The notes under the pieces: model-generated
What the model saw: only the letters and a program-made list of their open reading frames with translations
Database searches by the model: none
Told to the model about the DNA's origin: nothing
Part shown: in pieces, positions 1-19,231 of the stretch
How the letters are laid out: each line of letters starts with the position of its first letter
How positions within the stretch are numbered: the first letter of the stretch is position 1
Program-made: the position numbers and the translations under genes
From: an uncultured virus (IMG/VR IMGVR_UViG_3300020403_000008)
Lineage: Duplodnaviria > Heunggongvirae > Uroviricota > Caudoviricetes > Crassvirales
Virus record (IMG/VR): IMGVR_UViG_3300020403_000008
DNA: 64,000 nt
Strand: one strand, 5' to 3'

Positions 1-1
1 A

Positions 2-616
2 AACGTAAACGCATTGATGAAAGGAGAAATGCTAGAACTACAAGGTATATCTAAAAAACAATACGATAGAGAAATAGCAATGCTAGAAGATAGACCTGAT
101 TTAGCTGCTAACATGGCTAAAAACTTAGACATGTATAACTTCTTTGTTAATGAAAAGAATTATGATTCTAGGGTAAGAAAAGACTTGTATAGAATGATGA
201 GAGAAAATGCTTCAGATGAAGATGTTTTAGAGTTAATTAAAAAGTCTAGCATAGATATTTACAAAAGAACACTTCAAAGTCCAGTTAGCAAAGACTTAAA
301 ATATAATCAGGAAGATGTAAGAAAAGCAGAGGTTAAATCTTTTAAAAGATACAAAGCCATATATCAAGGCTACAAAGCTTTACATGACCAGCCTAATTAT
401 CAAGGGACTGCTCTAGATAGTAAGTCTGTTGTTGACATGCTGTATGAGACTGACCCTGAAATGAAGTCATTGCTTCTTTATAAGTATTTAGATGGCAACC
501 ACGACAACAACTCTATAAACAAACTTAACAATCTACACTCTTCTATAACTGGCAAGAACATACCAAAGTCTGTTTTAGAAATGTTACAGTACAGAATACT
601 TTATTATGGTAAATAA
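2..616 (+). CDS. C-terminal fragment of a large protein entering from the left edge (possibly a large virion/ejection protein)
   Basis: Frame is open from base 2 to TAA 614-616; helical, charged sequence; converges on the leftward arm. Confidence 0.6.
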   Translation, partial: NVNALMKGEMLELQGISKKQYDREIAMLEDRPDLAANMAKNLDMYNFFVNEKNYDSRVRKDLYRMMRENASDEDVLELIKKSSIDIYKRTLQSPVSKDLKYNQEDVRKAEVKSFKRYKAIYQGYKALHDQPNYQGTALDSKSVVDMLYETDPEMKSLLLYKYLDGNHDNNSINKLNNLHSSITGKNIPKSVLEMLQYRILYYGK

Positions 617-647
617 AAAAAGCGCCTGGGTGTTACGACAGACGCTT
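615..647 (-). terminator. Rho-independent terminator of the leftward arm
   Basis: Minus strand AAGCGUCUG-10nt loop-CAGGCGCUU then a U-run; the stem has a U-G wobble on the minus strand but a C-A mismatch on the plus strand. Confidence 0.8.
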
Positions 648-690
648 ATTTACACTATAAGTAAAGGTTGAGAACCTTTAACAAGTTAAT
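615..690 (-). ncRNA. Candidate small regulatory RNA (two hairpins flanking a UUAUAGUGUAAAU linker)
   Basis: TAGCTTTG -7 box at 703-696; perfect 8-bp hairpin 662-680; linker complementary to four start-codon regions; terminator 615-647. Confidence 0.45.
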
Positions 691-695
691 CGGTA

Positions 696-703
696 CAAAG
701 CTA
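696..703 (-). promoter_or_regulatory. Bacteroidota -7 promoter element TAGCTTTG
   Basis: Matches TAnnTTTG; overlaps the stop codon of 701..1153; only non-coding DNA lies downstream; no clear -33 box. Confidence 0.45.
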
Positions 704-1153
704 CAAAATTTCTTTCAATAATTCACCCACCTTTTCACAATCTTTTTGATTCCGTGGCATAAATAGTTTGGCGTCAATATCACTATCATTCAAAAACTTT
801 TTAAACAGCTTCCATCTTATTGGAAACGATTCGTTTGGATTACCCTTACATTCTATAATAAATCGTGGAGGATACTCTTTATCTACAAAATCAGGAGTAT
901 ATTTTATTGGTAGTATTTTTTTATTACCCCTGTTATGTAATTGTTTCTTTGCTCTCGTTTTTTCAAATGAGTCGTTGTCAGAATGAAAACCATCTACAAT
1001 AACATAAGTTTGACCTTCGTAAGTAAATGGCACTTTCATCTTCTTTAGAATCCTGTACATGTGTAATTCTAACTTACTTGCAAACTCTATATTATCTTCT
1101 TTTACTTTTTTTGAGCGGGTGATTTGTCTTTTTGCTCTTCTTCTTCTAGTCAT
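701..1153 (-). CDS. PD-(D/E)XK endonuclease (T7 endonuclease I / Holliday junction resolvase-like)
   Basis: FASKLE, YTPDF and IIECKG motifs. Confidence 0.75.
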   Translation of the reverse strand: MTRRRRAKRQITRSKKVKEDNIEFASKLELHMYRILKKMKVPFTYEGQTYVIVDGFHSDNDSFEKTRAKKQLHNRGNKKILPIKYTPDFVDKEYPPRFIIECKGNPNESFPIRWKLFKKFLNDSDIDAKLFMPRNQKDCEKVGELLKEIL

Positions 1154-1589
1154 CTACATTACTTATCTCAGTCACAACAAAGCCCTGAGACACTAATTCT
1201 TGTTCTGCTTCCTCTATAGACTTTGAATAAACAACAGTTTCATTTAGAATCTGTTCTTCTTGTTTATTAAAATGCATTGTTGTGACATTGTATTTATTTA
1301 TTCCATTTAAATCGTTCCAGTACATCATTTCTTTTAGTTCTTTTAAAAACCCTGGGTGATTTGCAAAACAATATAAGGCTTCTAAATGAGAACACTCTAA
1401 CTCATCGCTTAAAAATTCTACGGAAGCTGTTGGAAATGTTGTAATTTCAATTCCTTGGTTTGAATCTAAGTCTATAAAAAAGAAAAGCTTATCCATAGGA
1501 ACTTTTTTTTTGCGCATCTCTTCCACGTATTCTGATAATACTTGTGCTTCGTAAACGTCAGGGTTCCTATTAAAAAGTATTCTTCGCAT
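1146..1589 (-). CDS. hypothetical protein
   Basis: ORF; ATG at 1589 lies 3 nt after TATATTTG (1600-1593). Confidence 0.65.
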   Translation of the reverse strand: MRRILFNRNPDVYEAQVLSEYVEEMRKKKVPMDKLFFFIDLDSNQGIEITTFPTASVEFLSDELECSHLEALYCFANHPGFLKELKEMMYWNDLNGINKYNVTTMHFNKQEEQILNETVVYSKSIEEAEQELVSQGFVVTEISNVDD

Positions 1590-1606
1590 ATACAAATATA
1601 CGAAGA

Positions 1607-1999
1607 CTATAGGCTCTCTTTTAGCTTGGTAATTTCGTACTTGTCGGCAAGTGTCATTAAAAAATCACGAACAGGAGCTTCGTGCTTATGTATTACAGCA
1701 TCTCTATAAACATACTTTACGTAACAGTTTTCCATGTCTATAATATCTGTTGTTTCTGTAGTGTGGAAACAGTAAACAACCCATGCTGGTCCATTTGTTT
1801 TTTCCCAACAATCTGCTAATCTTTCGAATAAAAGCTTTTGCCCTATCGGAACTTTCATCCCCTCCTTCTTTACTTCGAATATTATAAGATGTTTTTCATT
1901 AAATTCTAGTATGGCATCTATATCTGTAGGATGTATCTTGCTGTTGCCGATACCTTTGAAGTTTAAAACTTGCTTTATTCTCTCAGGAAACTTAATCAT
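1607..1999 (-). CDS. PD-(D/E)XK-like nuclease-fold protein
   Basis: PTDIDAILE...IIFEVK...GQ; start moved to ATG 1999, which is preceded by TTTACACT. Confidence 0.6.
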   Translation of the reverse strand: MIKFPERIKQVLNFKGIGNSKIHPTDIDAILEFNEKHLIIFEVKKEGMKVPIGQKLLFERLADCWEKTNGPAWVVYCFHTTETTDIIDMENCYVKYVYRDAVIHKHEAPVRDFLMTLADKYEITKLKESL

Positions 2000-2039
2000 A
2001 GTGTAAAAATATTGACTAAGATAACAATAAAAATGTTTT

Positions 2040-3203
2040 CTAAGCAAAAATATGTGTTAATCTTGCTATTTGTCCGTGCTGAGTGTGATGTAAGAAACCT
2101 TCTATAGCTCTGACGGCATGTTGATACCCATTTCTGTGATGCCAAGAGTCTGAACCACTAGGTGACCTCAAACTTTCTACAGTAACTCCAGGAAAATCTT
2201 TTGATGTTTTGTGGTGGACATGATGCGTATAATAATATCTGTGTATTGTTTCGGACCAGAGCTTTTTAGCTTCTTGTGCCATTAGTAAAGGCAGGTCCTG
2301 TGGTTTTGCTCCGTCTCCATGCGTTGTTCCTATTAAATTGTTGTGGTATTGAAAATACTTTCTGTGTGCTATACTAACATCAAACGTTATGTTTTTGCAT
2401 TTAGAGAAACAAGCAAGAATAACTTGAGCTAGAAAGAAACCATTGGTGTAGTCGTGATTGCTAGGATTAAACATAAAATGAACGTCAGCTGTCTGTAACA
2501 ACCTATCAATCACAGTTATGTACATGTCTCTAGCTTTCAGGAAATTTTCATACCACATTCCATCAGTATCTTGTGGTGTTCCAGATGTAGTTAATCTTTT
2601 TGGTGTGTCAATATGAAGAACATCATTCCCAGCTATAAATAATATCTTTTCTATTTTAAATCCTTCTGCTTTTTTAAGTATGCCAGCTACTCCTTCATGG
2701 ACTCTTTTGATAGCAATATCGCTATTGTATTCTTCGCCAGTCTCATAAGCACGTGCAAGTTTTCCGATGTGAATATCAGCAGGGTCAACAACAAGAAGGT
2801 ATTTATCATCTTTAACACGAATTGGCTTGCGATTGATTTCATATTTTATAGGGTATTTTTTAATTGCATCTACATGGTCTCTGAGCATTTGCTCAAATGA
2901 AGGTCCTTCGGCACTTGGTCTAAATTGTATTGACCAGTGTTTACCTTTGTACCACGCCTGTCTTACTGTTGAAGGGTCTATACCTACTTTTTCTGTTTCT
3001 TCAACTAGAGCAGGATTTTCTTGTTTTATTGCATGCTTTTGTAGATAGGAAGAAAACATTCTTCTGCCTTTTTCTATTGTCATGTCCATCTCTAAGGTTT
3101 CTATAGCTACCTCAGCAATTCTTGTCTTGTTGTTGGTTACACCTTTGTCCCAAAGGTCCATACATTTATCAAGAAATATTTGATGTTCAGATTTCCGTTT
3201 CAT
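2040..3203 (-). CDS. Calcineurin-like metallophosphoesterase
   Basis: DIHIG, GNDVLH, SNHD, HGD and HVHH motifs. Confidence 0.85.
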   Translation of the reverse strand: MKRKSEHQIFLDKCMDLWDKGVTNNKTRIAEVAIETLEMDMTIEKGRRMFSSYLQKHAIKQENPALVEETEKVGIDPSTVRQAWYKGKHWSIQFRPSAEGPSFEQMLRDHVDAIKKYPIKYEINRKPIRVKDDKYLLVVDPADIHIGKLARAYETGEEYNSDIAIKRVHEGVAGILKKAEGFKIEKILFIAGNDVLHIDTPKRLTTSGTPQDTDGMWYENFLKARDMYITVIDRLLQTADVHFMFNPSNHDYTNGFFLAQVILACFSKCKNITFDVSIAHRKYFQYHNNLIGTTHGDGAKPQDLPLLMAQEAKKLWSETIHRYYYTHHVHHKTSKDFPGVTVESLRSPSGSDSWHHRNGYQHAVRAIEGFLHHTQHGQIARLTHIFA

Positions 3204-3372
3204 CGTCTTCCTTTATTAAGTTTTGGAGGATGTCAACGGCGCCAACTAATCTTCTTACCGAAGACTTAGCCTGTTGTTTGTCTATGTCAAGTAGAGAGTC
3301 GCATGTATCTGCCACATCATCGTGTAGCTCCTCACATACTTTTATTATAAATTTTTCTCTTGGTGTAAACAT
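3187..3372 (-). CDS. hypothetical protein
   Basis: ORF tightly packed in the operon. Confidence 0.6.
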   Translation of the reverse strand: MFTPREKFIIKVCEELHDDVADTCDSLLDIDKQQAKSSVRRLVGAVDILQNLIKEDDETEI

Positions 3373-3374
3373 TC

Positions 3375-3665
3375 TTAAACATCATCTTGATGCCGAAGAA
3401 ATACGTTTCCTAAGTTAGTGTCAATTTTCTTGATTCCTCTGTAGATAATTTTAGACTTACTGATTACAGCTTTCTTGTCTTTTTTTAAATTCGTGCAATC
3501 AAGATGCCCGTGCAATGTGTGGTCGTAAAATAATAGTTTATCAATTTTGGCTCTATCACTCCACGAAACTCTTGACAAAACTTTAGAAACTAATTCCTCC
3601 AACTGAACCCTTTCAGATTCTAACTCTAAGGCATTCCTCTCTTTTTTGTTCAATTCGTATTTCAT
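3375..3665 (-). CDS. hypothetical protein
   Basis: ORF downstream of TAGATTTG (3694-3687). Confidence 0.7.
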   Translation of the reverse strand: MKYELNKKERNALELESERVQLEELVSKVLSRVSWSDRAKIDKLLFYDHTLHGHLDCTNLKKDKKAVISKSKIIYRGIKKIDTNLGNVFLRHQDDV

Positions 3666-3701
3666 GGATTTGATTTAATTTTTTTACAAATCTAATCTAA
3701 G

Positions 3702-3962
3702 TTAAACACTTTTTTTGTATTTATCGTATAGTTTTATGTATAAATCCCACATTTCTTGTTGCATTTCGCATTGTGTGTAGTCTTTTGGTGACATTGTTAT
3801 ACGGTTTTTTGCTAGTGGATTTTCTATTTCTACATGTAGTTTTTTGTTTTTCCAAACTGGATATGTCTTAATACCAAGTCTATGACACCAAAGCATTTTT
3901 TTATAATGTTCAGGCGTTACCCTTACATCACAAGGTTTTATTTTTTTAGGTTTTTTAAACAT
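3702..3962 (-). CDS. hypothetical protein
   Basis: ORF coupled to the primase-helicase stop codon. Confidence 0.65.
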   Translation of the reverse strand: MFKKPKKIKPCDVRVTPEHYKKMLWCHRLGIKTYPVWKNKKLHVEIENPLAKNRITMSPKDYTQCEMQQEMWDLYIKLYDKYKKSV

Positions 3963-5758
3963 TAAAACAAGTCGTCATCGTTTTGATGTATTTTTTCTCT
4001 GTCTATTCCTGCCCATGGATTATCAGGCTTCATTCTTGGTTCTATGTAATACTTGTCACTTATCATGCTATTAGTGTTTGGTTCAACATTGACAGCATTA
4101 TATCTACCGCTAGGCAGGTCATATCTAAAAACTTGTTCCTCCAGGGTCTCTCCTTGGAACTTCATCTTTTGTTTTAGTGACTTAACAACAACGTCATCTT
4201 TTCTATAATCATTATAGTCTCTAAAATATCTATAAACAAGCATTCCATCATGACATATATTTTTAAAGTCAGCACTTCCGCTTACACTGTAAAGGTCAGG
4301 CTGTTTGTAATATCCTAAATCATCCTTTTGCATTTTAGTTGGATGAGCCACAAGAAATATCATGACATCATACTGTTGTGCAAAATTTGTAAGTTTAGTT
4401 AGTGTTGTTCTAATCTGAGACAGCTCATTGTTTTTACCGCTCATTTCTACTTTATTAAAGGCATCAATCACAAAAATATCTACACCATAAGAATAAACTT
4501 GTTCCTTAAATCTTTCTAACAACCAAGTCCATGTCGGTCTTTCGTTTTCAGGATATGTTATATAAACCTTTTCTTTGGACCACTTTATGTATGATTCTAT
4601 GTCTTGTTCTGATACTTTTTCTCTGTCAGGATTTGTCATGAAAAAGTTTTTAGCAAACACCTTTTCTATAAAAGTCGATTGATGTAATGCCATAGGATGA
4701 TGTTCAGGAGAATAAAATGAAGCTTTCATGTTATAATCCTTAACTAAATTAAGAACGTACCACTCTACAAAATTAGATTTACCGTGTGAGGGTATTCCTG
4801 TAACTACAGTCAAGTGACCTCGCATAGTTGTAAATGCGTCTTTTAGTCCACCGAAGCTATAACATTTAGGGTATATGGTCTTTGGTTTTCCGTGCTTGTG
4901 TAAAGTGTAGATGTCATCAGAAATATCATCAGCGGTGAACGTTCCGCTTGCTGGATACTTTTGGCTTGATGATAGTGAATTTTGTAGACCAATTTTTCCC
5001 CCATCTATGAGGTCTCCGTTCGCATCTTTGTTTTGAAATAAAATTCTTTCGCATCTGTATCTTCCTAATCTGTGTGCTATTCTGTCTGCAAGAGCTTCTC
5101 CCTTGTCGTCATTGTCGGTGCAAATATAAAACTTCTTTACATCTGATAAATATTTCTCTGAGTGTTTCCAGTAATTATCATTGTCATTAGCTCCGTTAGG
5201 AACAGAAATAGCATTCTTTACTCCTACTTCCCACATTGCTAAAACATCAAACTCTCCCTCCATAATGTAAACCTCATCCTTTCCTATAATATTATTTATG
5301 TTATAAAAAATAGGTTTTCCATCTTTTGATTGAGTAAAATTTTTACCTGAGTCTCTAAACTTTTTATTTACAATTTTATCTCCTTCAAAATAATTAAAGA
5401 CAAAACAATTCATCTCTTTATTTTTTTGTGGGATATAACATTTTTCTTGTGTAATTTTCATGTCAATCAATGTCTGCTGAGATATTCTTCTTGACTCTGC
5501 AAACTTGACAAACTGGTCGCTAAATTTAGTGTGATTTTCCCACTGCTGTGGAGGTAAAGTAAACTCAATCTTATCGTCTTCTCTGATAGATATAGCTTCA
5601 CAATAATGGCACTTAGCAACACCCTTAGCTACATTGACACTTAAACTTCTGTCTGATTTGTTTGTTCGCCTATCAATACAAGACGGGCATTTAACTTTAA
5701 CTTGTCCTGATTTACCGCTGATTAACTGGCTAACTTGTTCCCAATCTATTTTATCCAT
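3962..5758 (-). CDS. Twinkle/T7 gp4-like DNA primase-helicase
   Basis: Zn domain CPSC..CHYC; TOPRIM EGEFD and DNDDKG; Walker A GIPSHGKS; VAHP; SGSADF. Confidence 0.92.
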   Translation of the reverse strand: MDKIDWEQVSQLISGKSGQVKVKCPSCIDRRTNKSDRSLSVNVAKGVAKCHYCEAISIREDDKIEFTLPPQQWENHTKFSDQFVKFAESRRISQQTLIDMKITQEKCYIPQKNKEMNCFVFNYFEGDKIVNKKFRDSGKNFTQSKDGKPIFYNINNIIGKDEVYIMEGEFDVLAMWEVGVKNAISVPNGANDNDNYWKHSEKYLSDVKKFYICTDNDDKGEALADRIAHRLGRYRCERILFQNKDANGDLIDGGKIGLQNSLSSSQKYPASGTFTADDISDDIYTLHKHGKPKTIYPKCYSFGGLKDAFTTMRGHLTVVTGIPSHGKSNFVEWYVLNLVKDYNMKASFYSPEHHPMALHQSTFIEKVFAKNFFMTNPDREKVSEQDIESYIKWSKEKVYITYPENERPTWTWLLERFKEQVYSYGVDIFVIDAFNKVEMSGKNNELSQIRTTLTKLTNFAQQYDVMIFLVAHPTKMQKDDLGYYKQPDLYSVSGSADFKNICHDGMLVYRYFRDYNDYRKDDVVVKSLKQKMKFQGETLEEQVFRYDLPSGRYNAVNVEPNTNSMISDKYYIEPRMKPDNPWAGIDREKIHQNDDDLF

Positions 5759-5760
5759 AC

Positions 5761-6405
5761 TTACATTGTTATGTTATCATGTCTGTTTTGCTCACTCTTC
5801 CTGAGGAAGCCAGCAAAGGTCTTTTTAAAACTTTGCAAAGTTATCTGATATTGTCCTTTACCGTGTAGAAAATCTCTAAAAGTTTCCATTCTCCTTTTTA
5901 CTATGTATGGTTTTTTACTGTTTTTCATACATAAATGCTCTATGTACAATGCATCCTCAGAAACCTTTTTAATAATGATGTTGATGTCTTCTGCAACATT
6001 ATTTACATTATTAACCTTATTAACATTATTAGTAGTGGTTATCGGTTGGTTAATAGCTGGTTGTTGGTTGGTTAACGGTTGGTTATCCCCTTCCTTGATT
6101 TGGTACTCATCGTACTTATTTACAGTGATTAACGTGTGCATTGGGTTGGTTGAAACCTTAATCTCTTTTGTTTCAGTTAGGTGTCGAAGTGCTGTTCGTA
6201 TTTTCTGCCTACTCAACCCTAGCTCAACCGCTAATTTATCTGCACTTGTGATAAAGGTGCCACGTTTTATTTTTATTCCTTCCCACTCTTTATCTTTAAA
6301 ATTAGCTTTGAGTAGAATATGAATAAACAAACGAAAAGTGTTTGGTCTTTTATACCACTTCCAGTCTTTAATCTTTCTGTTAAGAGATATAAAATTAGAT
6401 TTCAT
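5761..6405 (-). CDS. Phage replication initiator / replisome organiser (N-terminal winged HTH)
   Basis: FISLNRKIKDWKWY..FIHILLKAN..KRGTFITS..LAVELGLS pattern, followed by a low-complexity N/Q linker. Confidence 0.7.
   Translation of the reverse strand: MKSNFISLNRKIKDWKWYKRPNTFRLFIHILLKANFKDKEWEGIKIKRGTFITSADKLAVELGLSRQKIRTALRHLTETKEIKVSTNPMHTLITVNKYDEYQIKEGDNQPLTNQQPAINQPITTTNNVNKVNNVNNVAEDINIIIKKVSEDALYIEHLCMKNSKKPYIVKRRMETFRDFLHGKGQYQITLQSFKKTFAGFLRKSEQNRHDNITM
5995..6083. repeat. Iteron-like repeats inside the initiator gene
   Basis: 9-bp AACATTATT-type tandem units (5995-6030) and repeated GGTTGGTT (6044-6083). Confidence 0.55.
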
Positions 6406-6901
6406 TTACATCAAACTTCTTAAGTTTCTCTTCTAGTTTTTTTGTGTAGTCACGATAGAATTTGATTTTCACTTTAGCTTGATGAAATTTTCTTATATAC
6501 TTTTTTTGTATTTGATTCAACGTAACACCTTCCTCAACTGGAGTTTCTCTGTCTTTTAATTTTGATAAAAGAAATGGAAACATGTCGAGTATTTCCTGTT
6601 CAGCTCTGAGATAACATCTGTAAGCTTTTTTATTGTTCAGAACAAAGACCTCAAAATTCTTTTTGTAGTGACAAATTGTGCTGTGGTCCCTGCCCATGTA
6701 TTGAGCAATTTTCTCGAAGCTTTCTTCTGCATAATCAAGGCATAACTTAACAAAGAATGCTCTGACATCAACTGTGCTTCTTTTTCTGTTGTCTGCTAAA
6801 TAATCTACATCAGTGTACCTTTTGTAAATTGTATCTATATCCGATAACGTTGGATATAATCCAAGGGAAGTTTCTTCCATACCTGTTTTGTATTGTTTCA
6901 T
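6395..6901 (-). CDS. DnaA domain IV-like HTH protein
   Basis: FEKIAQYMGRDHSTICH resembles the DnaA C-terminal RDHTTV signature. Confidence 0.7.
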   Translation of the reverse strand: MKQYKTGMEETSLGLYPTLSDIDTIYKRYTDVDYLADNRKRSTVDVRAFFVKLCLDYAEESFEKIAQYMGRDHSTICHYKKNFEVFVLNNKKAYRCYLRAEQEILDMFPFLLSKLKDRETPVEEGVTLNQIQKKYIRKFHQAKVKIKFYRDYTKKLEEKLKKFDVNEI

Positions 6902-6920
6902 TTAAATTAAATAATGGTTC

Positions 6921-6950
6921 AAAAAAAAAGGGGAGGGGTTACCTCCCCCG
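6921..6950 (-). terminator. Rho-independent terminator after SSB
   Basis: GGGGAGG-loop-CCTCCCC followed by a T-run on the minus strand. Confidence 0.85.
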
Positions 6951-6963
6951 AATTAACTAATCA

Positions 6964-7293
6964 CTAACCAAATAAATCATCGTCATCCGATGAAGTGCTA
7001 TTTGTAGTAGTTCCTGCTGGCTCACATCCAAATGTATCTACCTTCATGTACCCTTCAGGTTTATCAGGTGTACCGTTTAGGTTGCTTATGTTTACATCTA
7101 GCCTTACCTGAGGCTCTCCTTTGTATAAGCTATGCCTTGTAGGGTCTTTCAAAGCCTCCTGTAACCAGTCAACAAAATACTTGTTTACTACTACTTTTCC
7201 TTTTGCCCAATCGGGCTGTGTTGGTCTTGACGGAAAAAATATCATTCCATCAGGTCTCATTGGGTCTTTTTTCTTTTCTTCTTGTTGTTGCAT
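6964..7293 (-). CDS. putative single-stranded DNA-binding protein
   Basis: Small beta-rich protein with acidic tail SDDDDLFG, next to SSAP and exonuclease. Confidence 0.65.
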   Translation of the reverse strand: MQQQEEKKKDPMRPDGMIFFPSRPTQPDWAKGKVVVNKYFVDWLQEALKDPTRHSLYKGEPQVRLDVNISNLNGTPDKPEGYMKVDTFGCEPAGTTTNSTSSDDDDLFG

Positions 7294-8063
7294 TATATTA
7301 AAAATTTAATTACGTGTTGTGAAGCATCTTCCCCTGCTCCCTTAGGGTCTACATATTTGTAGTATTGTTCTTCTGCTTGTCTTACAAGCTCCTGACCTTT
7401 TTCAATAGCATAATCTGATATTTCAGGCATGGCTATTTGAAAAGTGTTTTTATCTATGACTACAAGCTGATAGTTTGCATCAAATAACTGAGAATAAATG
7501 TAAGCTTGACTGTGGTAGTTGTAAGAATAAAAACTGTTTTTAAAATTTTTCATGCTTGCTGTAGTTTTCAAGTCTACAACAAGATTTCTTTCTCTATTAA
7601 ATACATCAGCTTTTCCCTTCCAGAGGTATCTGCTTCCATCCAGAACCATACCCACCTCAGGGACTTCTTTATCTGATTGAGTTATGTCAATCATGTCAAA
7701 TACCTCTTTAACATTCATTAGCCTGTCTGCCATTCTTTTTGCCTGTTCAACCTCAACATCGAGCAAGAAGTCAGAATTAGACTCAGCTTTTTTAGTTTGA
7801 TAGGCTTTTGTGTTTCTGCTTTTAACATTTACAGTTTCCCACTCTGATGTTTTTTCAGGCTCTAAAATTTCTTGATGAAAATATCTACCAAAAAGCATTT
7901 CAGGACTAGGTGCTTCTCTTTCTCCTGATTCTTTTTGTATCTTAAATTTTTGTGGATTCTTCATGAGCTCAAGAATATCTGAATTTGACAGATAGCTTTG
8001 CCCTAGCTTTCCATAATAATTATCATCATCTTGGAGCTGTTCAATTAGCTTAGACTTATCCAT
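7293..8063 (-). CDS. PD-(D/E)XK exonuclease (RecE/DUF3799-like)
   Basis: LSNSDI, FGRYFH, KGKAD, VDLKTT and YHSQAYIY motifs. Confidence 0.85.
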   Translation of the reverse strand: MDKSKLIEQLQDDDNYYGKLGQSYLSNSDILELMKNPQKFKIQKESGEREAPSPEMLFGRYFHQEILEPEKTSEWETVNVKSRNTKAYQTKKAESNSDFLLDVEVEQAKRMADRLMNVKEVFDMIDITQSDKEVPEVGMVLDGSRYLWKGKADVFNRERNLVVDLKTTASMKNFKNSFYSYNYHSQAYIYSQLFDANYQLVVIDKNTFQIAMPEISDYAIEKGQELVRQAEEQYYKYVDPKGAGEDASQHVIKFLI

Positions 8064-8688
8064 TGACCTCTTTTGTTAAAGTTTTTAAATCCTCCTTAGA
8101 AAGCCTGTGTGTTTTTAATAGACCATCTATGCTACCTTTACCACTTTTGATGCCGTCTACAGCCTTCTTAAATAGCTCTGTGCCTGCTTTAATTTCTTTT
8201 CTAGTGTCGGTATTAGTTGATTGCTTTTCAGTTTCAGGCAAATCTTCTCCAGCATATATATATAATCCTAATCCAAACATTGCAAGATTTTTGGTCAAAC
8301 ACCTCATCAATGTAGAGTTGATTTCAAACATGGTTGCGGCTTGAACATTTAGTTTTTTGCCCCATGAAGTTACATACGTGTAGGGCTCAAGCTTCATCGC
8401 TGTATTGTTATTATCCATAACAGGTAACCACATTGTTTTTTTAGGCTCATTAGGGGATGTACGCACCCAAGTTTCACACATGAGCCCAGCTGATGATAGT
8501 GAATAGGGTTGCCACACGCCGTCCTTATCTCTTGTCTTAATTATGCCGTAAGTTGATTCAGGATAATGCTTCATGAATTGAGCCCAAGCCCAAGACCATG
8601 AGAGGTAAGTTAGTTTTCCTTTTTTCTCTGTGTTTTCATTTACGTTGAGAGAGAACAACGTTTCAAATGTAGATTTTTGTTTTGTCAT
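8056..8688 (-). CDS. Sak3-type single-strand annealing protein (DUF1071)
   Basis: LTYLSWSWAW, MWLPVMD and RCLTKNLAMFGLGLYIYAGEDLP motifs. Confidence 0.9.
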   Translation of the reverse strand: MTKQKSTFETLFSLNVNENTEKKGKLTYLSWSWAWAQFMKHYPESTYGIIKTRDKDGVWQPYSLSSAGLMCETWVRTSPNEPKKTMWLPVMDNNNTAMKLEPYTYVTSWGKKLNVQAATMFEINSTLMRCLTKNLAMFGLGLYIYAGEDLPETEKQSTNTDTRKEIKAGTELFKKAVDGIKSGKGSIDGLLKTHRLSKEDLKTLTKEVNG

Positions 8689-9143
8689 TTTATTAAATTT
8701 AAATTTATTGTTTTACCACTTAAGTAAATTGAGTCTATTTTTTTTGATAGAGACTCTACTATCTCTTCATAATTTTCAGGTCTATTTTTTGTTTTTAATA
8801 TTTTTTTAATTGCCTTTTTCTTAGAGGAAATTCTAAGAGTTCTGCTGTACACAGCCAGCCCATGCTCCATGCATAATTCAATATGCTCGTCACTGACTGG
8901 TGTATACATGTCAGAATTTGTATTGTAGAGGTCGTATTTAACAAACGAGTTTTTCGTGTAACGCTCCAATAATATTTTGGGGTAGTAAAATTTTTCAATA
9001 CATGTAACTTCACTACTTGTTTCTGTTTTGTGAACGTGTTTCTTTGCCCCGTTGTTTTGGTCCTCCCTCTCGAATAGATACTTTAGTTTCCCCTGACGTG
9101 TTTTGACGTCCTGCTGAAACAGTTCCTGCTGTTCTTCTTGCAT
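8685..9143 (-). CDS. hypothetical protein
   Basis: ORF overlaps the SSAP start (ATGA). Confidence 0.7.
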   Translation of the reverse strand: MQEEQQELFQQDVKTRQGKLKYLFEREDQNNGAKKHVHKTETSSEVTCIEKFYYPKILLERYTKNSFVKYDLYNTNSDMYTPVSDEHIELCMEHGLAVYSRTLRISSKKKAIKKILKTKNRPENYEEIVESLSKKIDSIYLSGKTINLNLIK

Positions 9144-9309
9144 GTCTCTCTAATTTAGCTTTGGCATCTTGTGTCATTACCTCTAAGAGAGCGCATTTAA
9201 TTTTCAGCTTACTGATTTCCTTTTTCAGGACCTCAACGTGAGTCAGTAAAAATCCTCTGTCATCGTAAGGTGTGTTATCAATTATAATCCTACCTTTTTT
9301 GCCAGCCAT
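9013..9309 (-). CDS. hypothetical coiled-coil protein
   Basis: ATG 9309 just after the upstream stop; 3' end overlaps the next gene by ~130 nt. Confidence 0.55.
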   Translation of the reverse strand: MAGKKGRIIIDNTPYDDRGFLLTHVEVLKKEISKLKIKCALLEVMTQDAKAKLERHARRTAGTVSAGRQNTSGETKVSIREGGPKQRGKETRSQNRNK

Positions 9310-9310
9310 C

Positions 9311-9655
9311 TTAGAAAATGTTAAAAAACCATTTACCCAAGTTACTAACATTTTTTGGATTTTGTCTAATAACTAGATTAAAACCTTCTAGTGTCGGCTG
9401 TATGTAGTGTACTCGAAAGCTTCCTACACGTATTATGCCTTCATACTCATTTTCCTTTATTGTATCTAGAACCTTATCAAGTTTCAAGTCTCCATACTCT
9501 GAAGCATGAAAAACAAGGTCCTCGTCCAAAAAGTTTGCACTGCCAATATTATAAATTGACGGCGCTCTGTCACTCCAAAACTTTTTTAGTTTAACTTTTG
9601 AGCTACGTGTTAAATCTAGCTCTTCAATCTTACTTAGAAATTCTGTTGTTGTCAT
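9311..9655 (-). CDS. hypothetical protein
   Basis: ORF downstream of TAACTTTG (9688-9681). Confidence 0.7.
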   Translation of the reverse strand: MTTTEFLSKIEELDLTRSSKVKLKKFWSDRAPSIYNIGSANFLDEDLVFHASEYGDLKLDKVLDTIKENEYEGIIRVGSFRVHYIQPTLEGFNLVIRQNPKNVSNLGKWFFNIF

Positions 9656-9685
9656 ATCGGTTTTATATTTTTATAGGTGTCAAAG

Positions 9686-10294
9686 TTATACATTTCCTTT
9701 TACGCTGGCATTCAGATTGTTAAACGCTCCGAAAACCTTTTCGTAATGCTCAGGTTGTAAATTTACGTCAGCTTCATGAAGTTGAAGCTTCAAATCTTTT
9801 TCTGAATTACACAAAGGAAACAAGTCAAACAAACACTCTACATCCCCATTTACCTCGTAATGATAAGCTAAATATGTGTAGTTCTTTGTAGATTCCAGAT
9901 ACCCAGATATAAAATGCATTTGTGACGCTTTATCTTTGATTGGGTCCGAATATTCAAACTTAACGCTCACATCAAAAGCTTTTGAAACCCCCTCAGCCAA
10001 AGCCTTCGGGGGATTCCAACTACTGTCAAATTCAATAGTAAGCATTGCGCTTGTTGACTCTATATTTACAACGTCAATCCATGAGCTCCCAAACATGTAA
10101 AGCTTGTCTTTATCTGATAAGTTTTCTGTTTCTTCAACAAAAGTTAATTCAGATAAATTGGATTCGTTTAATATCTCAGATAAAGTCCATTCAGTGAAAG
10201 TGTCGTACTCAGATACTCTCGTGAATTTATCATCAATCTTATGAAGAACAGCTTGTTCTCCATAGATTTTTAGTTTATTTGAAACAACGCTCAT
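9686..10294 (-). CDS. YubB/DUF1281-like ferredoxin-fold protein
   Basis: FDSSWNPP...VSKAF..V.FEY pattern. Confidence 0.5.
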   Translation of the reverse strand: MSVVSNKLKIYGEQAVLHKIDDKFTRVSEYDTFTEWTLSEILNESNLSELTFVEETENLSDKDKLYMFGSSWIDVVNIESTSAMLTIEFDSSWNPPKALAEGVSKAFDVSVKFEYSDPIKDKASQMHFISGYLESTKNYTYLAYHYEVNGDVECLFDLFPLCNSEKDLKLQLHEADVNLQPEHYEKVFGAFNNLNASVKGNV

Positions 10295-10935
10295 TATAAC
10301 GATTCTATGTGTCCTGTTAAAGTTTTTAAAAGCTTGTCTGCGTTGCTGAAATATTTACTGTTAGGATTGTCTTTAAACTTCTCCTCAGAATTAAAATCAG
10401 GTCTCGCATTTTCATAGTAAATTTTCATCAGGAAGTTTTTCATGTTATCATAATCTCCCTGATATAAAACTCTACCAAAAACAAACTTGCCGTCAATGTC
10501 ATTGTAGAAAGTTTCTATGACTAAAGTCTTGCCATTTACTTTTTTATCGTAAATGTACCTGACTAAAAATACGTGTTTCTCTACGCCGTACTGTTCGTCA
10601 TACCATCTTTTCCACACGTCCTCGCTTTTAAGTTGATAGAAGCCTTCTATCTGAGCCATGTTATAGCCAAAGGCTACCTTATCTCCTTCACGGTGCATGT
10701 CCATTAAACTGCTGAGGTTCCCGCAAAACAACAAGTCACATGATTCTTCCTTGGTCGATTCACTATCAACAGTTGTCTGACCAGCCGTTGTTGAAACGAC
10801 TGGAGGTTGTGGTCCTGGGCTTACTTCAAGCCCGTCTTGTGTATTAATATACAGACTGTCTAAGTCTGAAAGGTCCGTTGCAAAGCATCCGCTAGTAAGG
10901 ACCGCTAGGGTTATATACAATGTCATTTTTTTCAT
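10294..10935 (-). CDS. lipoprotein
   Basis: MKKMTLYITLAVLTSG-C: basic N-terminus, hydrophobic core and lipobox. Confidence 0.7.
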   Translation of the reverse strand: MKKMTLYITLAVLTSGCFATDLSDLDSLYINTQDGLEVSPGPQPPVVSTTAGQTTVDSESTKEESCDLLFCGNLSSLMDMHREGDKVAFGYNMAQIEGFYQLKSEDVWKRWYDEQYGVEKHVFLVRYIYDKKVNGKTLVIETFYNDIDGKFVFGRVLYQGDYDNMKNFLMKIYYENARPDFNSEEKFKDNPNSKYFSNADKLLKTLTGHIESL

Positions 10936-11182
10936 TAGATTTAATTTTAGATTGATTTTTGTTTTGTAACTCATTGTTTACGAAGAGAATTATGGCTTCG
11001 TCATAGTCCATTTTTTGTTTGTCCCACTTAATGTTATGCTTGGCATTTTTATGATACCATTTTTGTGCAAGTTCATAAGCTCGGTCAAATGTTGACCATA
11101 TAGTTCCACCCAACATATCCTCTTGAATTATTATTGAAGTTATCAAAGCTAACTCCTTGGCTTGTTCATTATCTATTTTCAT
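10892..11182 (-). CDS. hypothetical protein
   Basis: ORF in the early operon. Confidence 0.6.
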   Translation of the reverse strand: MKIDNEQAKELALITSIIIQEDMLGGTIWSTFDRAYELAQKWYHKNAKHNIKWDKQKMDYDEAIILFVNNELQNKNQSKIKSNEKNDIVYNPSGPY

Positions 11183-11205
11183 TTTATTATTATTTATATT
11201 AATAT

Positions 11206-11805
11206 TTATTTTAATCCTGTTTGTAAGTCGTTTATTTCCCAGCCAAAAACTGCCTTGAGATATTTCTCAAGCTTAGGCTTGTCTTCTGTTCTGAACAGTA
11301 TATCGCAAGCAGTAGAAAAAACGTTGCTGGTCCTGACTGTTATAACCCAAAGAGGGAAGTTAGGATGCGTACTTTCGTCTTCAGCTAGGCTTTGAAGAAA
11401 GTCATTTATTTTTTGCTTGTGAGACATGTGGTCGTCTAGCCATCCAGTTATCCAGCCGTCTATTGTTTCCCAGCCTTCTTTGAAGTCGTAGTCAAAATAT
11501 CCACGCCAGCCGTCAGTTGACTTCCAGTACATTTTTTCTATTGGAAATTTCTCTGAGTCTGTGGTGTAGTTTATGTCTTCGTAATATTCGTTCATCAGTT
11601 TGTAATGTTGTGTATAATAATACTTTTCAGAGTCTGCCCACTCCACCCCGTAAGGGATGCAGTGAGCGGCATCTTCAAGTTCACTATTGTCACAAGATTC
11701 ACAAAAAGTAATTTCGTCTCCTTCGTGGTTCTCCCCTATTCTGTAACTTTCGTCTTCAGGGTTTATATCTTCTCCACAAATGTCGCATTTGATTAACTCG
11801 CTCAT
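11206..11805 (-). CDS. hypothetical protein with N-terminal Zn finger
   Basis: CDIC...CESC. Confidence 0.7.
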   Translation of the reverse strand: MSELIKCDICGEDINPEDESYRIGENHEGDEITFCESCDNSELEDAAHCIPYGVEWADSEKYYYTQHYKLMNEYYEDINYTTDSEKFPIEKMYWKSTDGWRGYFDYDFKEGWETIDGWITGWLDDHMSHKQKINDFLQSLAEDESTHPNFPLWVITVRTSNVFSTACDILFRTEDKPKLEKYLKAVFGWEINDLQTGLK

Positions 11806-11811
11806 AATGTT

Positions 11812-12060
11812 TTATTTAATAAGTTCTTCTATAAATTCTGATTGTACTCCATTCCCTGAGGGAAGTTTTTCGACAAGGTGTCTGATTGCGTAAACCTTCA
11901 GTGAGGATTTTCTGCCTATTTCAGCTCTTGCCTGTTTCTCGGTGTTGAACATTTTAGCTTTATGAAAAGCCTTAGTTACTCTCCCGTCTTCTCCTAGCGT
12001 CCTGTCCTTACTGTCCTTCAGGATGTACGCATGAATTTGATTAAATATTAGTTCTTTCAT
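11812..12060 (-). CDS. hypothetical protein
   Basis: Packed ORF. Confidence 0.6.
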   Translation of the reverse strand: MKELIFNQIHAYILKDSKDRTLGEDGRVTKAFHKAKMFNTEKQARAEIGRKSSLKVYAIRHLVEKLPSGNGVQSEFIEELIK

Positions 12061-12257
12061 TCCTCTCGTGGTTCTATGTAGTCTAAAATCTCGTTAAATA
12101 TTTTAGGATAGTCATTGAAAAGAATATCCACAATTTGCTTGTCTCTTGCTCCGTTAGATTTTAATTCTCTAGCTCTTTTCTTAAACTTGTCTTTGATTTC
12201 TGTCAGACGTCCAACCTCCCATTGTAAGTCTGTTACTTTATCTTTTGCAAAGCTCAT
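12057..12257 (-). CDS. hypothetical protein
   Basis: Packed ORF. Confidence 0.6.
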   Translation of the reverse strand: MSFAKDKVTDLQWEVGRLTEIKDKFKKRARELKSNGARDKQIVDILFNDYPKIFNEILDYIEPREE

Positions 12258-12259
12258 AA

Positions 12260-12748
12260 TTAAAATGCTGAATAAGGTTTAAGTTGATTGTTCTCGTAAG
12301 TCTCCCACTCCCATTCATCATCATGTACAGTCAGTTCATGGAAGTATTTTTTAAGCTTCTCAGAAATAGCGATTAAACGCTTGTCGTCTGTCCAGTTTTT
12401 TATGGTGCAGTCGCTACCAATTCTTGCGAGCATTCCGCCACCTAAATAGTTTTGATATGCGCACATTTTTTCCCCTTGAAAACCGAAGTTGTCAAGGGAA
12501 ATTTCTATACCACCTCCTCTATGAGATATTTCCTGTCTCAATACTAAAAAGGTAGATGCGATGTAACCTCCAACAGAGTCGAAAGCTTCAGGGTTAGTGC
12601 CCATCTCGTAAAAGATTCTAAGTAGTCCTAAGCCTACTATGGCTCCGCCTGTTGTTTTAATTGCCATGACTAAATAGTCAGGTGCAGTGTCTTGGTCAGC
12701 CCAATTCTTGAGCGCCGTCTTTAAAAAATTGATTAATTTAATTAACAT
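12260..12748 (-). CDS. hypothetical protein with a hydrophobic N-terminal segment
   Basis: First gene after the promoter at 12784-12777. Confidence 0.7.
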   Translation of the reverse strand: MLIKLINFLKTALKNWADQDTAPDYLVMAIKTTGGAIVGLGLLRIFYEMGTNPEAFDSVGGYIASTFLVLRQEISHRGGGIEISLDNFGFQGEKMCAYQNYLGGGMLARIGSDCTIKNWTDDKRLIAISEKLKKYFHELTVHDDEWEWETYENNQLKPYSAF

Positions 12749-12776
12749 AGTGTAAATTTTTAATGATTAACTGATT

Positions 12777-12808
12777 CAAACTTACAACACTTTTTTTTAC
12801 TGTGCAAG
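12777..12808 (-). promoter_or_regulatory. Early promoter (-7 TAAGTTTG; -33 CTTG)
   Basis: TAnnTTTG at 12784-12777; leader shares GATTAACTG and CATAGTGTAAA with the ardC leader. Confidence 0.7.
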
Positions 12809-12825
12809 TTTTTGTGAATAAAATT

Positions 12826-13017
12826 TTAAATTCTTCTTAATAATTTCTCTATAATATCATAAGTCTCCTGTCCTGAAGAACTCATTCTGTCATAGTCAAA
12901 GCCTAAAAGATTAATATTTCTTTTTAGCTCTCGGATATTATCTTCACGTTCCCGCTCGATAGCTCCGTTCTTTTGTGCGGTCTTAACCGCTTTGTCAAAT
13001 CTTGTTTGTGCACTCAT
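12826..13017 (-). CDS. hypothetical protein
   Basis: Packed ORF. Confidence 0.6.
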   Translation of the reverse strand: MSAQTRFDKAVKTAQKNGAIEREREDNIRELKRNINLLGFDYDRMSSSGQETYDIIEKLLRRI

Positions 13018-13183
13018 TGTTTTTAATTTTAGTTGTGTTAAAAAATTGATTAATAATTAAGTTGTCAAATGTCTTCTCAGGGACCTTCCCAAAGCCTGTC
13101 TTTGATATTCTATTACAGAAAGCTCTAGCTTCTAAAATTTGGTCCGCTATACCTTCCAGCTGTTCTTCAGTATATTTAGGCAT
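12995..13183 (-). CDS. hypothetical protein
   Basis: Likely start ATG 13183 (MPKYT). Confidence 0.5.
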   Translation of the reverse strand: MPKYTEEQLEGIADQILEARAFCNRISKTGFGKVPEKTFDNLIINQFFNTTKIKNNECTNKI

Positions 13184-13556
13184 GTCTCTTGAAATTAAAT
13201 TTGACGTCATGAAGTAGTTTTCCTACCCTGATATTTTCATCGTGAGCCTGAGCCAGTCGTTCACTATCATCAGTGTACTCCTCATAGACTTGTTTACTCT
13301 CTTTGAAAAAACCTTCCGAAGCTTCAGGACCTAGCCACATTTTAGATTTAAAATCTACTATGTATCCAGCCCACTCAATCCACATGTGAGGGATTCGCTT
13401 CTCTCCTAATTCTACGTGCCCTGTAACAATTCTAAACTCCTCTTGTTCCTGTGCCAGTAGATAGGCAATAACTCGTGACGTACCGTCACACTCGTAATTT
13501 TTACACACCGCCGAAACTCTGTCGGCGATGTATAGTTTAAATAAATTATTATTCAT
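13176..13556 (-). CDS. transglutaminase/papain-like fold protein
   Basis: Cys (ECDGTSR), His (PHMWIE) and Asp (IVDF) triad spacing. Confidence 0.55.
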   Translation of the reverse strand: MNNNLFKLYIADRVSAVCKNYECDGTSRVIAYLLAQEQEEFRIVTGHVELGEKRIPHMWIEWAGYIVDFKSKMWLGPEASEGFFKESKQVYEEYTDDSERLAQAHDENIRVGKLLHDVKFNFKRHA

Positions 13557-13559
13557 GAT

Positions 13560-13835
13560 TTAATATGTTAAATGTTTTTCTAGATTCATGTCGTATAAAA
13601 TTTGCCTTCCGATTTCAAAAACCTTTTTGTCTGTGGTAGTTGTCGGACCATAAAATTCATAACCATCATCATCTTCATCTTCATCAGCTGTGAACACTTC
13701 TATGTCGGTTATTCTGTCGCCGTTATAGTAAACGCCCTGCGCCCAATAAGTTATATTATTATATATAAACTTAGCTTTGAATTGTATTGTGGAAGCGTAA
13801 GCTTCCTGCTCGATTACTTCTATATTATTTTTCAT
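13560..13835 (-). CDS. hypothetical acidic protein
   Basis: ORF with a DEDEDDD tract. Confidence 0.65.
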   Translation of the reverse strand: MKNNIEVIEQEAYASTIQFKAKFIYNNITYWAQGVYYNGDRITDIEVFTADEDEDDDGYEFYGPTTTTDKKVFEIGRQILYDMNLEKHLTY

Positions 13836-16269: not shown

Positions 16270-16307
16270 AGTGTAAATATTAAATTAAAATTTTTGATTA
16301 ACTGGGG

Positions 16308-16338
16308 CTAAATTACAATTATTAACCAAACTACCAAA
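16308..16338 (-). promoter_or_regulatory. Early promoter for ardC (-7 TAATTTAG, -33 TTTG)
   Basis: Near-consensus -7 box at 16315-16308, with TTTG 19 nt upstream. Confidence 0.6.
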
Positions 16339-16762
16339 CTTTATTAACAAATATTTTTATTTCACTGGACCCAAATACCTTGGCAACCCGCACCAGTGTT
16401 AACCTTTGGGAGCATAAATTTTTTTTCAAATTTGTATGATTTACTAATATAATTAGATGCGCAAAGAGAGGTTATTTCGTGTCCCTATGCGTCTAAACGT
16501 GAAATTTTAGAGATAGGGGACAGAAAAAGGTAAATTTTAGCTGTGGTCCCGCATAAACACTGGGAAAAAAAGGTAAAAAGTTGGGCTGGATTGACCAAAA
16601 AGTCGACCCCGTGGACCAATCCAAAACGTTTTCCAAAATCGGCGTCTGTCGTCAACTTGATACATAACCCGTTGGTTCTCGATAACTGATGTGTAACCAA
16701 AAATGGACATTAACTATGTTGTATATATTGTACACCCTTATTTGTCCAGCTTCGGTAACACA

Positions 16763-16781
16763 TATATTTGTTGTATATTTG
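16763..16781 (+). promoter_or_regulatory. Two tandem TATATTTG -7 boxes starting the rightward arm
   Basis: TATATTTG at 16763-16770 and 16774-16781. Confidence 0.6.
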
Positions 16782-16805
16782 ATATAAATAATTAAATATT
16801 ATATA

Positions 16806-17012
16806 ATGGACGGTATAGAAAACACTATTAGAGAAAAACTATTAAAACAAATTGATGAGGAGTTGTCTGCTGACGCAGTAGTTAACGTTGAGGTCTTTAA
16901 AGTATTAACTAAATTCTATATAGACTTCATGCATTTAAAGAACAATGAGAAGGTTATGAGAGACGCTCAGAAAGCAGCTATGCAACCCCCAGGTAATCCT
17001 TTGAAAAAATAA
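16806..17012 (+). CDS. hypothetical protein
   Basis: First rightward ORF. Confidence 0.65.
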   Translation: MDGIENTIREKLLKQIDEELSADAVVNVEVFKVLTKFYIDFMHLKNNEKVMRDAQKAAMQPPGNPLKK

Positions 17013-17013
17013 C

Positions 17014-17157
17014 ATGGAAGCTACCATAACATTCATGCCTCCCTATCAACTTATGGCAGGGGTGTCTTTTTTCCCAGAAGAATTTAAAGATGGTAAACAT
17101 TATTGGAATGAATTTACAGTGTATATATTTATTTTTAGCATAAAGTTAGAATGGTAA
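17014..17157 (+). CDS. small hypothetical protein (47 aa)
   Basis: MEATITFMPP...IFSIKLEW, read manually; fills the gap. Confidence 0.55.
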   Translation: MEATITFMPPYQLMAGVSFFPEEFKDGKHYWNEFTVYIFIFSIKLEW

Positions 17158-17205
17158 AACATTTTTTCTTATGTTTGTATCATTAAAATTTAATTCAATT
17201 ACACT

Positions 17206-17280
17206 ATGAAACTATTTAACTTCTTTTTAGGACTATCAATCGGACTATCTGTATCTCTTATACTAATAGTAAACTCATGA
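17206..17280 (+). CDS. 24-aa hydrophobic peptide coupled to groEL
   Basis: MKLFNFFLGLSIGLSVSLILIVNS; ATGA overlap with groEL; follows TATGTTTG 17170-17177. Confidence 0.55.
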   Translation: MKLFNFFLGLSIGLSVSLILIVNS

Positions 17281-18866: not shown

Positions 18867-19098
18867 TGGAAATCAATTTATAAGCAGTAACTGGCAGATA
18901 CTCGCATCTTTTGCTTTGGCTGTATTTACGGCAGGAGGAATATTTGCCGAGTTTACTGCTCTTAAGAACGAGTTGACTTTAGTCCATGATAGACTAGATG
19001 AAAAAGTCCTATTAATAGATAGACTAGAAACTAGGATTTTAGACATTGAAAAAGAACTAGAATACGAAAAAGGGTTTATAGACGGAAGAAAAAAATAA
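18859..19098 (+). CDS. membrane protein with coiled coil
   Basis: One TM segment followed by heptad repeats. Confidence 0.65.
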   Translation: MANGNQFISSNWQILASFALAVFTAGGIFAEFTALKNELTLVHDRLDEKVLLIDRLETRILDIEKELEYEKGFIDGRKK

Positions 19099-19231
19099 AT
19101 GAAACACAAACTGCAAAAAACTATATTCGGAACATACAGGGTCTTATGGAAGGCTAACGATGGTATAAGGGCAGGTCATGAAGATTTTAATACAGAAAGC
19201 GAAGCAAATATTTTTGTAAAAAAATTAAAAG

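Follow-up and report, generated by a model that had tools for sequence, protein, structure and literature searches.

The c4 RNA of phages P1 and P7 and the CI RNA of P4 are small phage antisense RNAs that recognize short target words recurring at two or more sites of phage transcripts; their targets lie in their own operon, and they serve lysogeny and immunity in temperate enterobacterial elements. RegA of phage T4, a protein, shuts off many early mRNAs via a common word at the start codon. Here we analyze a 64,000-nt stretch of DNA (the window) from an uncultured virus (IMG/VR record IMGVR_UViG_3300020403_000008), in which an 84-nt gap separating two convergent gene arms (615-703) carries a candidate gene for a small RNA (sRNA) with a linker complementary to the start regions of four phage genes. 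The proposed outcome matches that of RegA, with an RNA in place of the protein; unlike the c4 and CI RNAs, the gap RNA belongs to what is apparently an uncultured, lytic marine podophage of Flavobacteriia. From its sequence and conservation, the locus probably encodes an independently promoted sRNA that starts from a promoter on a stop codon. For this RNA, a mode of action through base pairing with the four leaders is plausible, if tentative, and is the most specific mechanism that the sequence supports, in one lineage.

GibS of Bacteroides thetaiotaomicron, a chromosomal and experimentally tested RNA, is described as pairing across the start codons of mRNAs without a Shine-Dalgarno (SD) sequence and as repressing them without Hfq or ProQ (PMC7366714). 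The gap RNA would likewise be a trans-acting RNA of Bacteroidota with a single-stranded AU-rich seed over the start codon. It differs in being phage-encoded, in carrying its seed in an internal linker rather than in the 5' 30-50 nt where the cited account places that of GibS, and in having no sequence likeness to it. In P22, sar RNA is reported to block initiation of ant translation via pairing (PMC12197685). Like lambda OOP and P22 sar as presented there, the gap RNA is predicted to be a short phage RNA with its own promoter and terminator that faces a converging or overlapping gene; those two regulate in cis the very gene that they overlap, whereas here the proposed targets are 1.3-16.6 kb distant and the local overlap is with a 3' untranslated region (UTR). 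For the Cellulophaga crAss-like phage phi14:2, abundant intergenic noncoding RNAs of unknown function are described from the earliest time point (10.1101/2020.03.07.982082); they likewise arise from gaps of a Flavobacteriia phage, but are long, come from gaps g004-g006 and belong to an unrelated, larger phage. Among the literature matches listed, judged by titles and abstract openings, there was no described sRNA of a Flavobacterium-infecting or other Bacteroidota phage.

Temporal control in the abundant marine and gut phages of Bacteroidota is poorly known. If true, the proposal would offer i) a simple, testable RNA shut-off of anti-restriction and other lead genes in hosts without SD sequences and Hfq, ii) a compact repressor-leader pair as a genetic tool for Flavobacteria, and iii) a sequence rule, the stop-codon promoter, for locating such loci in metagenomic phages. 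If not real, it would warn that a common leader word plus one chance antisense copy can mimic an sRNA regulon.

Anatomy of the gap and its probable promoter

Leftward genes run from ~16.3 kb down to 701 and rightward genes from ~16.8 kb round to 616, so that the gap is the meeting point of both arms. Its features and neighbors, the latter being open reading frames (ORFs), are as follows.

614-616, + strand: stop codon TAA of a plus-strand ORF with no family assigned, the converging neighbor of the gap
701-1153, - strand: DUF1064/Holliday-junction-resolvase-like ORF, 150 aa, with stop codon TAG at 703-701
696-703, - strand: Bacteroidota -7-type box TAGCTTTG; its TAG (703-701) is the stop codon of the DUF1064 gene, preceded by the last codon TTG
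690-691, - strand: predicted transcription start, G691 or A690, placed by the Flavobacterium johnsoniae spacing of 4-5 nt past the box
662-680, - strand: hairpin 1, arms 680-673 and 669-662, with eight perfect pairs (UAAAGGUU/AACCUUUA), loop CUC, -5.9 kcal/mol
648-661, - strand: linker CUUAUAGUGUAAAU, 14 nt, the proposed seed (core UAGUGUAAAU); unpaired in the centroid fold, opening cost 2.2 kcal/mol
615-647, - strand: intrinsic terminator, stem 647-639/628-620 with nine pairs including one G.U, 10-nt loop, U7 at 621-615

The box, the hairpin (680-662), the linker (661-648) and the terminator (647-615) all lie where the first-pass annotation had placed them. A 15-nt spacer separates TAGCTTTG from hairpin 1 on the minus strand, and the predicted RNA, from ~691 to 615, is ~77 nt long. 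At its end a GC-rich stem stands directly before a U-tract, as expected of an intrinsic terminator closing a transcription unit. The fold reaches -11.5 kcal/mol on the minus strand versus -9.0 kcal/mol on the plus strand, where it contains a C.A mismatch and ends in the tail UUAUUU; therefore the terminator mainly serves the leftward arm, and it doubles as a weaker terminator for the plus-strand arm. A consensus terminator scan with a loop limit of 8 nt missed it because its loop is longer, and the consensus promoter scan, being sigma-70 based, is irrelevant to promoters of the Bacteroidota type. Hairpin 1 is followed by no U-tract on either strand and thus is no terminator by the usual criteria. 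In silico the linker is single-stranded and accessible. With box, hairpin, open linker and terminator and with no ORF, the anatomy fits an sRNA gene.

The same position raises the alternative that the gap is a mere termination zone of converging arms, which yields no regulatory RNA and matches the leaders by chance. We consider this somewhat unlikely: the convergent position and a terminator with A- and U-tracts on both sides are what it predicts, yet it leaves unexplained a hairpin without a U-tract on either strand. A second alternative is a real sRNA with another role, either cis-antisense action on the converging late-arm 3' end or terminator (as lambda OOP for cII) or pairing with host targets, the leader match again being chance. 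Between 617 and ~655 the 3' UTR of the plus-strand arm and the RNA are fully complementary, and the RNA's U7 extends over that arm's stop codon by 2 nt. However, the overlap with the convergent gene is confined to this 3' UTR and those 2 nt, so that an OOP-type overlap with the coding 3' end is absent, and we regard such a role as quite unlikely.

Rfam 15, searched over window positions 1-20000 at E<=1, gave no family at the gap. A SNORA77 match over 531-653 scored 27.4 bits against a gathering score of 42 and, being an unrelated eukaryotic small nucleolar RNA, was taken as noise.

The box TAGCTTTG conforms to TAnnTTTG, the promoter type that goes with a Bacteroidota host, itself a reasonable inference for this phage (PMC6847099). 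In F. johnsoniae, as that report describes, 4-5 nt lie between box and start, and the -33 element, which is weak, counts for less than AT-rich tracts at -18 and -28 (PMC6847099). Upstream of the 703-696 box there is no -33 TTTG at 19-21 nt (a TTG stands 12 nt upstream), and AT-rich tracts at positions of the -18/-28 type are present. The pattern NNNC-R-(N)TTAA follows only four of the 167 TAnnTT[TA]G sites in the window, namely the 703 site and the promoters of three proposed target genes; the pattern was set post hoc, after viewing these four sites. The three target promoters are:

12777-12784, - strand: box TAAGTTTG of ORF 12748, followed by AATC-AGTTAATC
16308-16315, - strand: box TAATTTAG of the ArdC-like gene, followed by CCCC-AGTTAATC
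17170-17177, + strand: box TATGTTTG of the peptide/GroEL pair, followed by TATC-ATTAAAAT

Thus three of the four targets have a -7 box 28-38 nt upstream, with similar first transcribed bases. The fourth, ORF 1999, has TATTTTTG 45 nt upstream (2045-2052, - strand), which stands 2 nt before the stop codon of the exonuclease gene. Two further boxes lie close to gene ends: TAACTTTG (9681-9688, - strand) includes a stop TAA, with a real gene 33 nt downstream, and TAGATTTG (3687-3694, - strand) lies 8 nt past a stop codon. Fusing promoters to the ends of genes seems habitual in this phage.

Conservation of the stop-codon box among DUF1064 loci

Eighty loci with DUF1064 homologues were compared, three of which had no stop codon within the locus. 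After loci with less than 200 nt downstream or with duplicate first 120 nt were dropped, 57 distinct downstream contexts were left, and a gap of at least 69 nt before a convergent ORF was found in 13 of them. The sequence TA[AG]nTTTG stood exactly on the stop codon in 11 of these 13 gap contexts versus none of the 44 with an abutting convergent gene. The two gap exceptions were L017, with its box at +19, and L006, which reads TAAGTTTA, one base off; among the 44 non-gap contexts, L011 had a box at +12. Moreover the last codon was TTG in 14/14 gap-type contexts versus 1/50 others, the other terminal leucines being encoded by CTT, CTC and TTA. Within the box, position 4 may be C, A or G while TTTG never changes, and the sequence beyond the box is unalignable. 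Mapped on a 66-protein DUF1064 tree, the gap type requires four changes, at least three of them forced by well-supported branches. Retention of TTG-TA[AG]n-TTTG while the rest of the gap is unalignable is what one would expect of a selected element and not of residual similarity.

The gaps of these deep relatives hold one or two hairpins and a strong terminator within 80-145 nt in total. With only hairpins and a terminator after the box, the sole product of such a promoter would be a short structured RNA. In some relatives a U-run follows hairpin 1, i.e., the terminators are in tandem, which would suit a gap that merely ends transcription; such a gap leaves unexplained, however, both the invariant element on the stop codon across deep lineages and the likeness to three target promoters. 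A promoter for an sRNA is the more likely because the box is kept across deep relatives and resembles those promoters. The first-pass annotation had proposed an sRNA, or a processed 3' UTR, that shuts off translation of lead early genes as an early-to-late switch: its sRNA gene gains from these two observations, while the shut-off at start codons draws on the complementarity of one lineage.

In one other clade (L046, L051, L054 at 3451-3540 and L074 at 3451-3536) a linker word GGGGYGA precedes the terminator, and the first hairpin is kept by compensatory changes (L046 versus L051). GGGGYGA had no complement in start regions and no Rfam match and was not enriched versus control. Across nine relatives' loci, Rfam at E<=0.1 gave nothing at the gap. 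A real sRNA with a role other than start-codon pairing would agree with this clade's retained word, with a conserved promoter followed by lineage-specific linkers and with the lack of start-region targeting in other lineages; it leaves unexplained that the only complex multi-start complement in the window is the open linker.

In G004 and G005 the gap RNA linker UUUGUUUGACA is complementary to AUGUCAAACAAA at the start of the promoter-proximal gene (L004 3540-3560 and G004 2433; L005 and G005 470), an 11-mer at background level. The word TGTCAAACAAA at the ATG of the promoter-proximal gene in both genomes is at background level as well, and two of its three sense copies in G004 lie away from gene starts. 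The linker's word GUUUGAC also precedes the terminator in L010. Apart from one 7-mer in G004, no gap RNA of the other genomes mirrored a start-codon word that recurs in its genome.

Complementarity to four start regions

The 9-mer TTACACTAT occurs five times in the window versus 1.05 +/- 1.02 expected, a count of five or more being reached in 0/100 shuffles. Four copies are TTACACTATG at the ATGs at 1999 (-), 12748 (-), 16269 (-) and 17206 (+), and the fifth is the gap itself. A genome-wide count against start codons was a check put forward in the first-pass annotation. The four matches, with net energies given after opening costs, are:

16266-16279, - strand: leader and ATG (16269-16267) of the ArdC-like anti-restriction gene; 14 bp, net -12.4 kcal/mol
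12746-12757, - strand: leader and start of ORF 12260-12748 (162 aa, no family); 12 bp, net -9.1 kcal/mol
1997-2008, - strand: leader and start of ORF 1607-1999 (130 aa, no family); 12 bp, net -8.3 kcal/mol
17198-17208, + strand: leader and start of the 24-aa peptide ORF (17206-17280); 11 bp, net -7.9 kcal/mol

Linker-only RNAduplex bore out the duplexes claimed earlier (14, 12, 12 and 11 bp, with the G of AUG pairing to a U in the linker): the four targets ranked 1-4 among 74 start regions, at -15.5, -12.9, -12.7 and -12.2 kcal/mol, over a background for all 74 with mean -5.2 and standard deviation 2.8 kcal/mol.

On this basis we propose that a host-type promoter (sigma-ABfr, -7 box), placed on the stop codon with which the leftward replication arm ends, would start an RNA at ~691; the ~77-nt product would consist of a 5' hairpin followed by the 14-nt open linker and would end at the U7 terminator (615-621). 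The linker would pair with (A/U)UUACACUAUG, just before and including the start codon of the ArdC-like gene, ORF 12748, ORF 1999 and the pre-GroEL peptide gene. Such pairing would mask the start codon from the ribosome, and translation of the four genes would fall as the RNA accumulates. We infer synthesis of the RNA, its pairing in the cell, the repression and its timing from sequence. In the broadest form, the Flavobacteriia podophage group would keep an sRNA locus where the replication and late arms meet, its 80-140-nt RNA having a linker rewritten in each lineage; here that linker would be antisense to ArdC and three other starts, under a promoter of the same class as its targets', giving a self-limiting circuit that would turn off the phage's first-expressed genes and the first base-pairing regulator described for a Bacteroidota phage. 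Taken as a whole this extension is unlikely.

How far the match exceeds chance depends on the space considered. For the 9-mer the shuffle probability was 0.0011 in the gap 615-703 alone and 0.056 in any of 20 gaps (those of at least 40 nt, 3,162 nt in total, both strands); for the 10-mer in any of the 20 gaps it was 0.023. Sites complementary to at least three start regions numbered 108 for 9-mers, nearly all pure A/T, and three for 10-mers, where the gap site was the only one containing G/C. In this respect the complementarity is unique in the window. A looser search with 14-mers and up to three mismatches showed no enrichment (22 versus 16.7 expected; 13/100 shuffles reached 22), and RNAduplex with the full-length RNA and mononucleotide shuffles discriminated in none of five genomes. 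The four target matches are not independent of one another, because one leader word is common to all. With ranks 1-4 of 74 and an any-gap probability of 0.02-0.06, complementarity at the start codons exceeds background, and we regard a linker-leader match above chance as suggestive, not compelling.

Whichever reading holds, the leader word common to the four promoter-proximal starts is real and calls for some reader. A protein such as a translational repressor or a nuclease might read (A/U)UUACACUAUG in the manner of T4 RegA or RegB, or the word might be a translation-tuning leader, with the gap copy a chance occurrence or a decoy. The word stands right at the ATG of four promoter-proximal genes and is conserved in the relatives G001 and G003, and the gap copy, in the 3' UTR of the late arm on the plus strand, has the same sense as the leaders. 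The word also has A at -3, described as a positive determinant in Flavobacterium (PMC6847099). Against a protein reader, no RNA-binding protein came up as a candidate: the flanking ORFs have no family, and no search for RegA homologues was made. Such a reader is improbable as the sole account, and it is not exclusive of the proposed sRNA.

Three lineage variants were present in the collections searched. A metagenome scan with a 17-nt hairpin word was unspecific: it returned at least 121 stretches, and only L134 of the 80 examined was related, a contig of the same phage as G003. In G001 the gap is identical and all four target words are present. G003 shows 91% nucleotide identity over 900 nt with both stems unchanged; its gap carries five substitutions and a 3-nt insertion. 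Two of the five substitutions fall within the 14-nt linker, which becomes UUUUUAGUGUAAAU (CUUAUAG... to UUUUUAG...) with the 10-nt core retained. TTACACTATG is intact in the three of three G003 targets that are retrievable, the fourth lying beyond the contig end. In G003 the ArdC duplex weakens to -12.5 kcal/mol, and that of ORF 1999 stands at -12.6 kcal/mol; the latter holds (versus -13.2) because a leader U-to-A change at -9 lengthens the duplex, a weak hint in support of pairing.

Several observations weigh against an sRNA promoter at 703-696, against pairing with the four leaders, or against both. i) The motif TAnnTTTG alone is frequent: the window has 107 sites. With its G at -10 the box departs from the refined F. 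johnsoniae consensus TAHHTTTG, which has no G at -10 or -9, and such a G is nearly absent from promoters of that species (PMC6847099), although three gene-proximal boxes of the phage itself, at 12784, 17170 and 3694, have one as well; in G003, T replaces C before the presumed start. ii) Because the 9-mer is expected 1.05 times per window, one further copy of TTACACTAT is unremarkable unless its location is counted, and another start word, TATGGCAAA (three genes), has two comparable chance antisense copies in coding DNA; both facts suit a gap devoted to termination. The gap shares other, meaningless 10-11-mers with unrelated places. iii) In its 3' part the seed reads AAAUAA, complementary to the plus-strand tail UUAUUU; some of the match may therefore have another cause. 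iv) When the whole RNA was used and accessibility left out of account, the best energy was -23.2 versus a shuffle mean of -23.5 kcal/mol, and the targets were unremarkable. v) One G003 linker change breaks the pair with the U of AUG, and the peptide duplex is weakened to -9.2 kcal/mol. The first-pass annotation had looked to covariation of seed and targets: G001 is identical, and G003, the single diverged relative, shows no compensatory change, the linker being the least conserved part of its gap, as a mere termination zone would allow. vi) Gap RNAs of G004-G011, compared with all predicted start regions, had no multi-target complementarity in these eight lineages; the best matches were single 8-12-mers, either A-rich (complementary to the U-tract) or at the level of the coding background. 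These records are 43-100% complete and their gene calls crude (first ATG, at least 45 aa), and the hypothesis of wider targeting is weakened rather than rejected. vii) Three marine metatranscriptomes yielded scattered low-depth contigs of the phage, and none among the pieces listed covers 615-703, a ~77-nt RNA not being expected in standard metatranscriptome libraries and the contigs being uninformative either way.

The source phage and minor sites

The window encodes an ArdC-like protein, GroEL, a primase-helicase, an exonuclease, a terminase, a portal and large virion proteins. When its first 6 kb were searched as nucleotides, none of 50,697 phage records matched. In a protein search the primase-helicase was 53% identical to that of Flavobacterium Elemovirus phages, the nearest placement. 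DUF1064 homologues are present in Elemovirus, Callevirus and crAss-like phages; in both phage isolates inspected the gene is not the last in its arm, and thus an equivalent gap is missing there. For the 1943-aa virion protein, considered as a possible virion RNA polymerase of the crAss type, no sequence match was found in PDB.

The nearest record, G001, has 69,291 bp and 97% identity over the 1,001 bases compared. Its "direct terminal repeats" fall inside the primase-helicase gene of the window (~4975-5106) and have the appearance of the overlap left by a circular assembly rather than of physical ends of the genome.

The ArdC-like protein (13825-16269, - strand) has 814 aa and combines ArdcN, a zincin-like MPTase-PolyVal domain and DUF7447. 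The 24-aa hydrophobic ORF (17206-17280, + strand; MKLF...VNS) reads MKLFNFFLGLSIGLSVSLILIVNS; its TGA overlaps the ATG of GroEL (ATGA, 17277-17280), which extends over 17277-18866 (+ strand). This arrangement suggests a small, translationally coupled membrane peptide; a leader peptide of the attenuator type seems less fitting.

The gap of the divergent arms (16270-16806) is unusually long, ~540 nt with few credible ORFs, and contains two neighboring TATATTTG boxes (16763 and 16774) as well as stretches richer in G+C; an origin or a control region may lie here. The 11-mer ACGACAGACGC, which covers the 3' arm and loop of the terminator at 635-645 (+ strand), occurs again in this divergent region at 16642-16652 (- strand) and was taken as chance.

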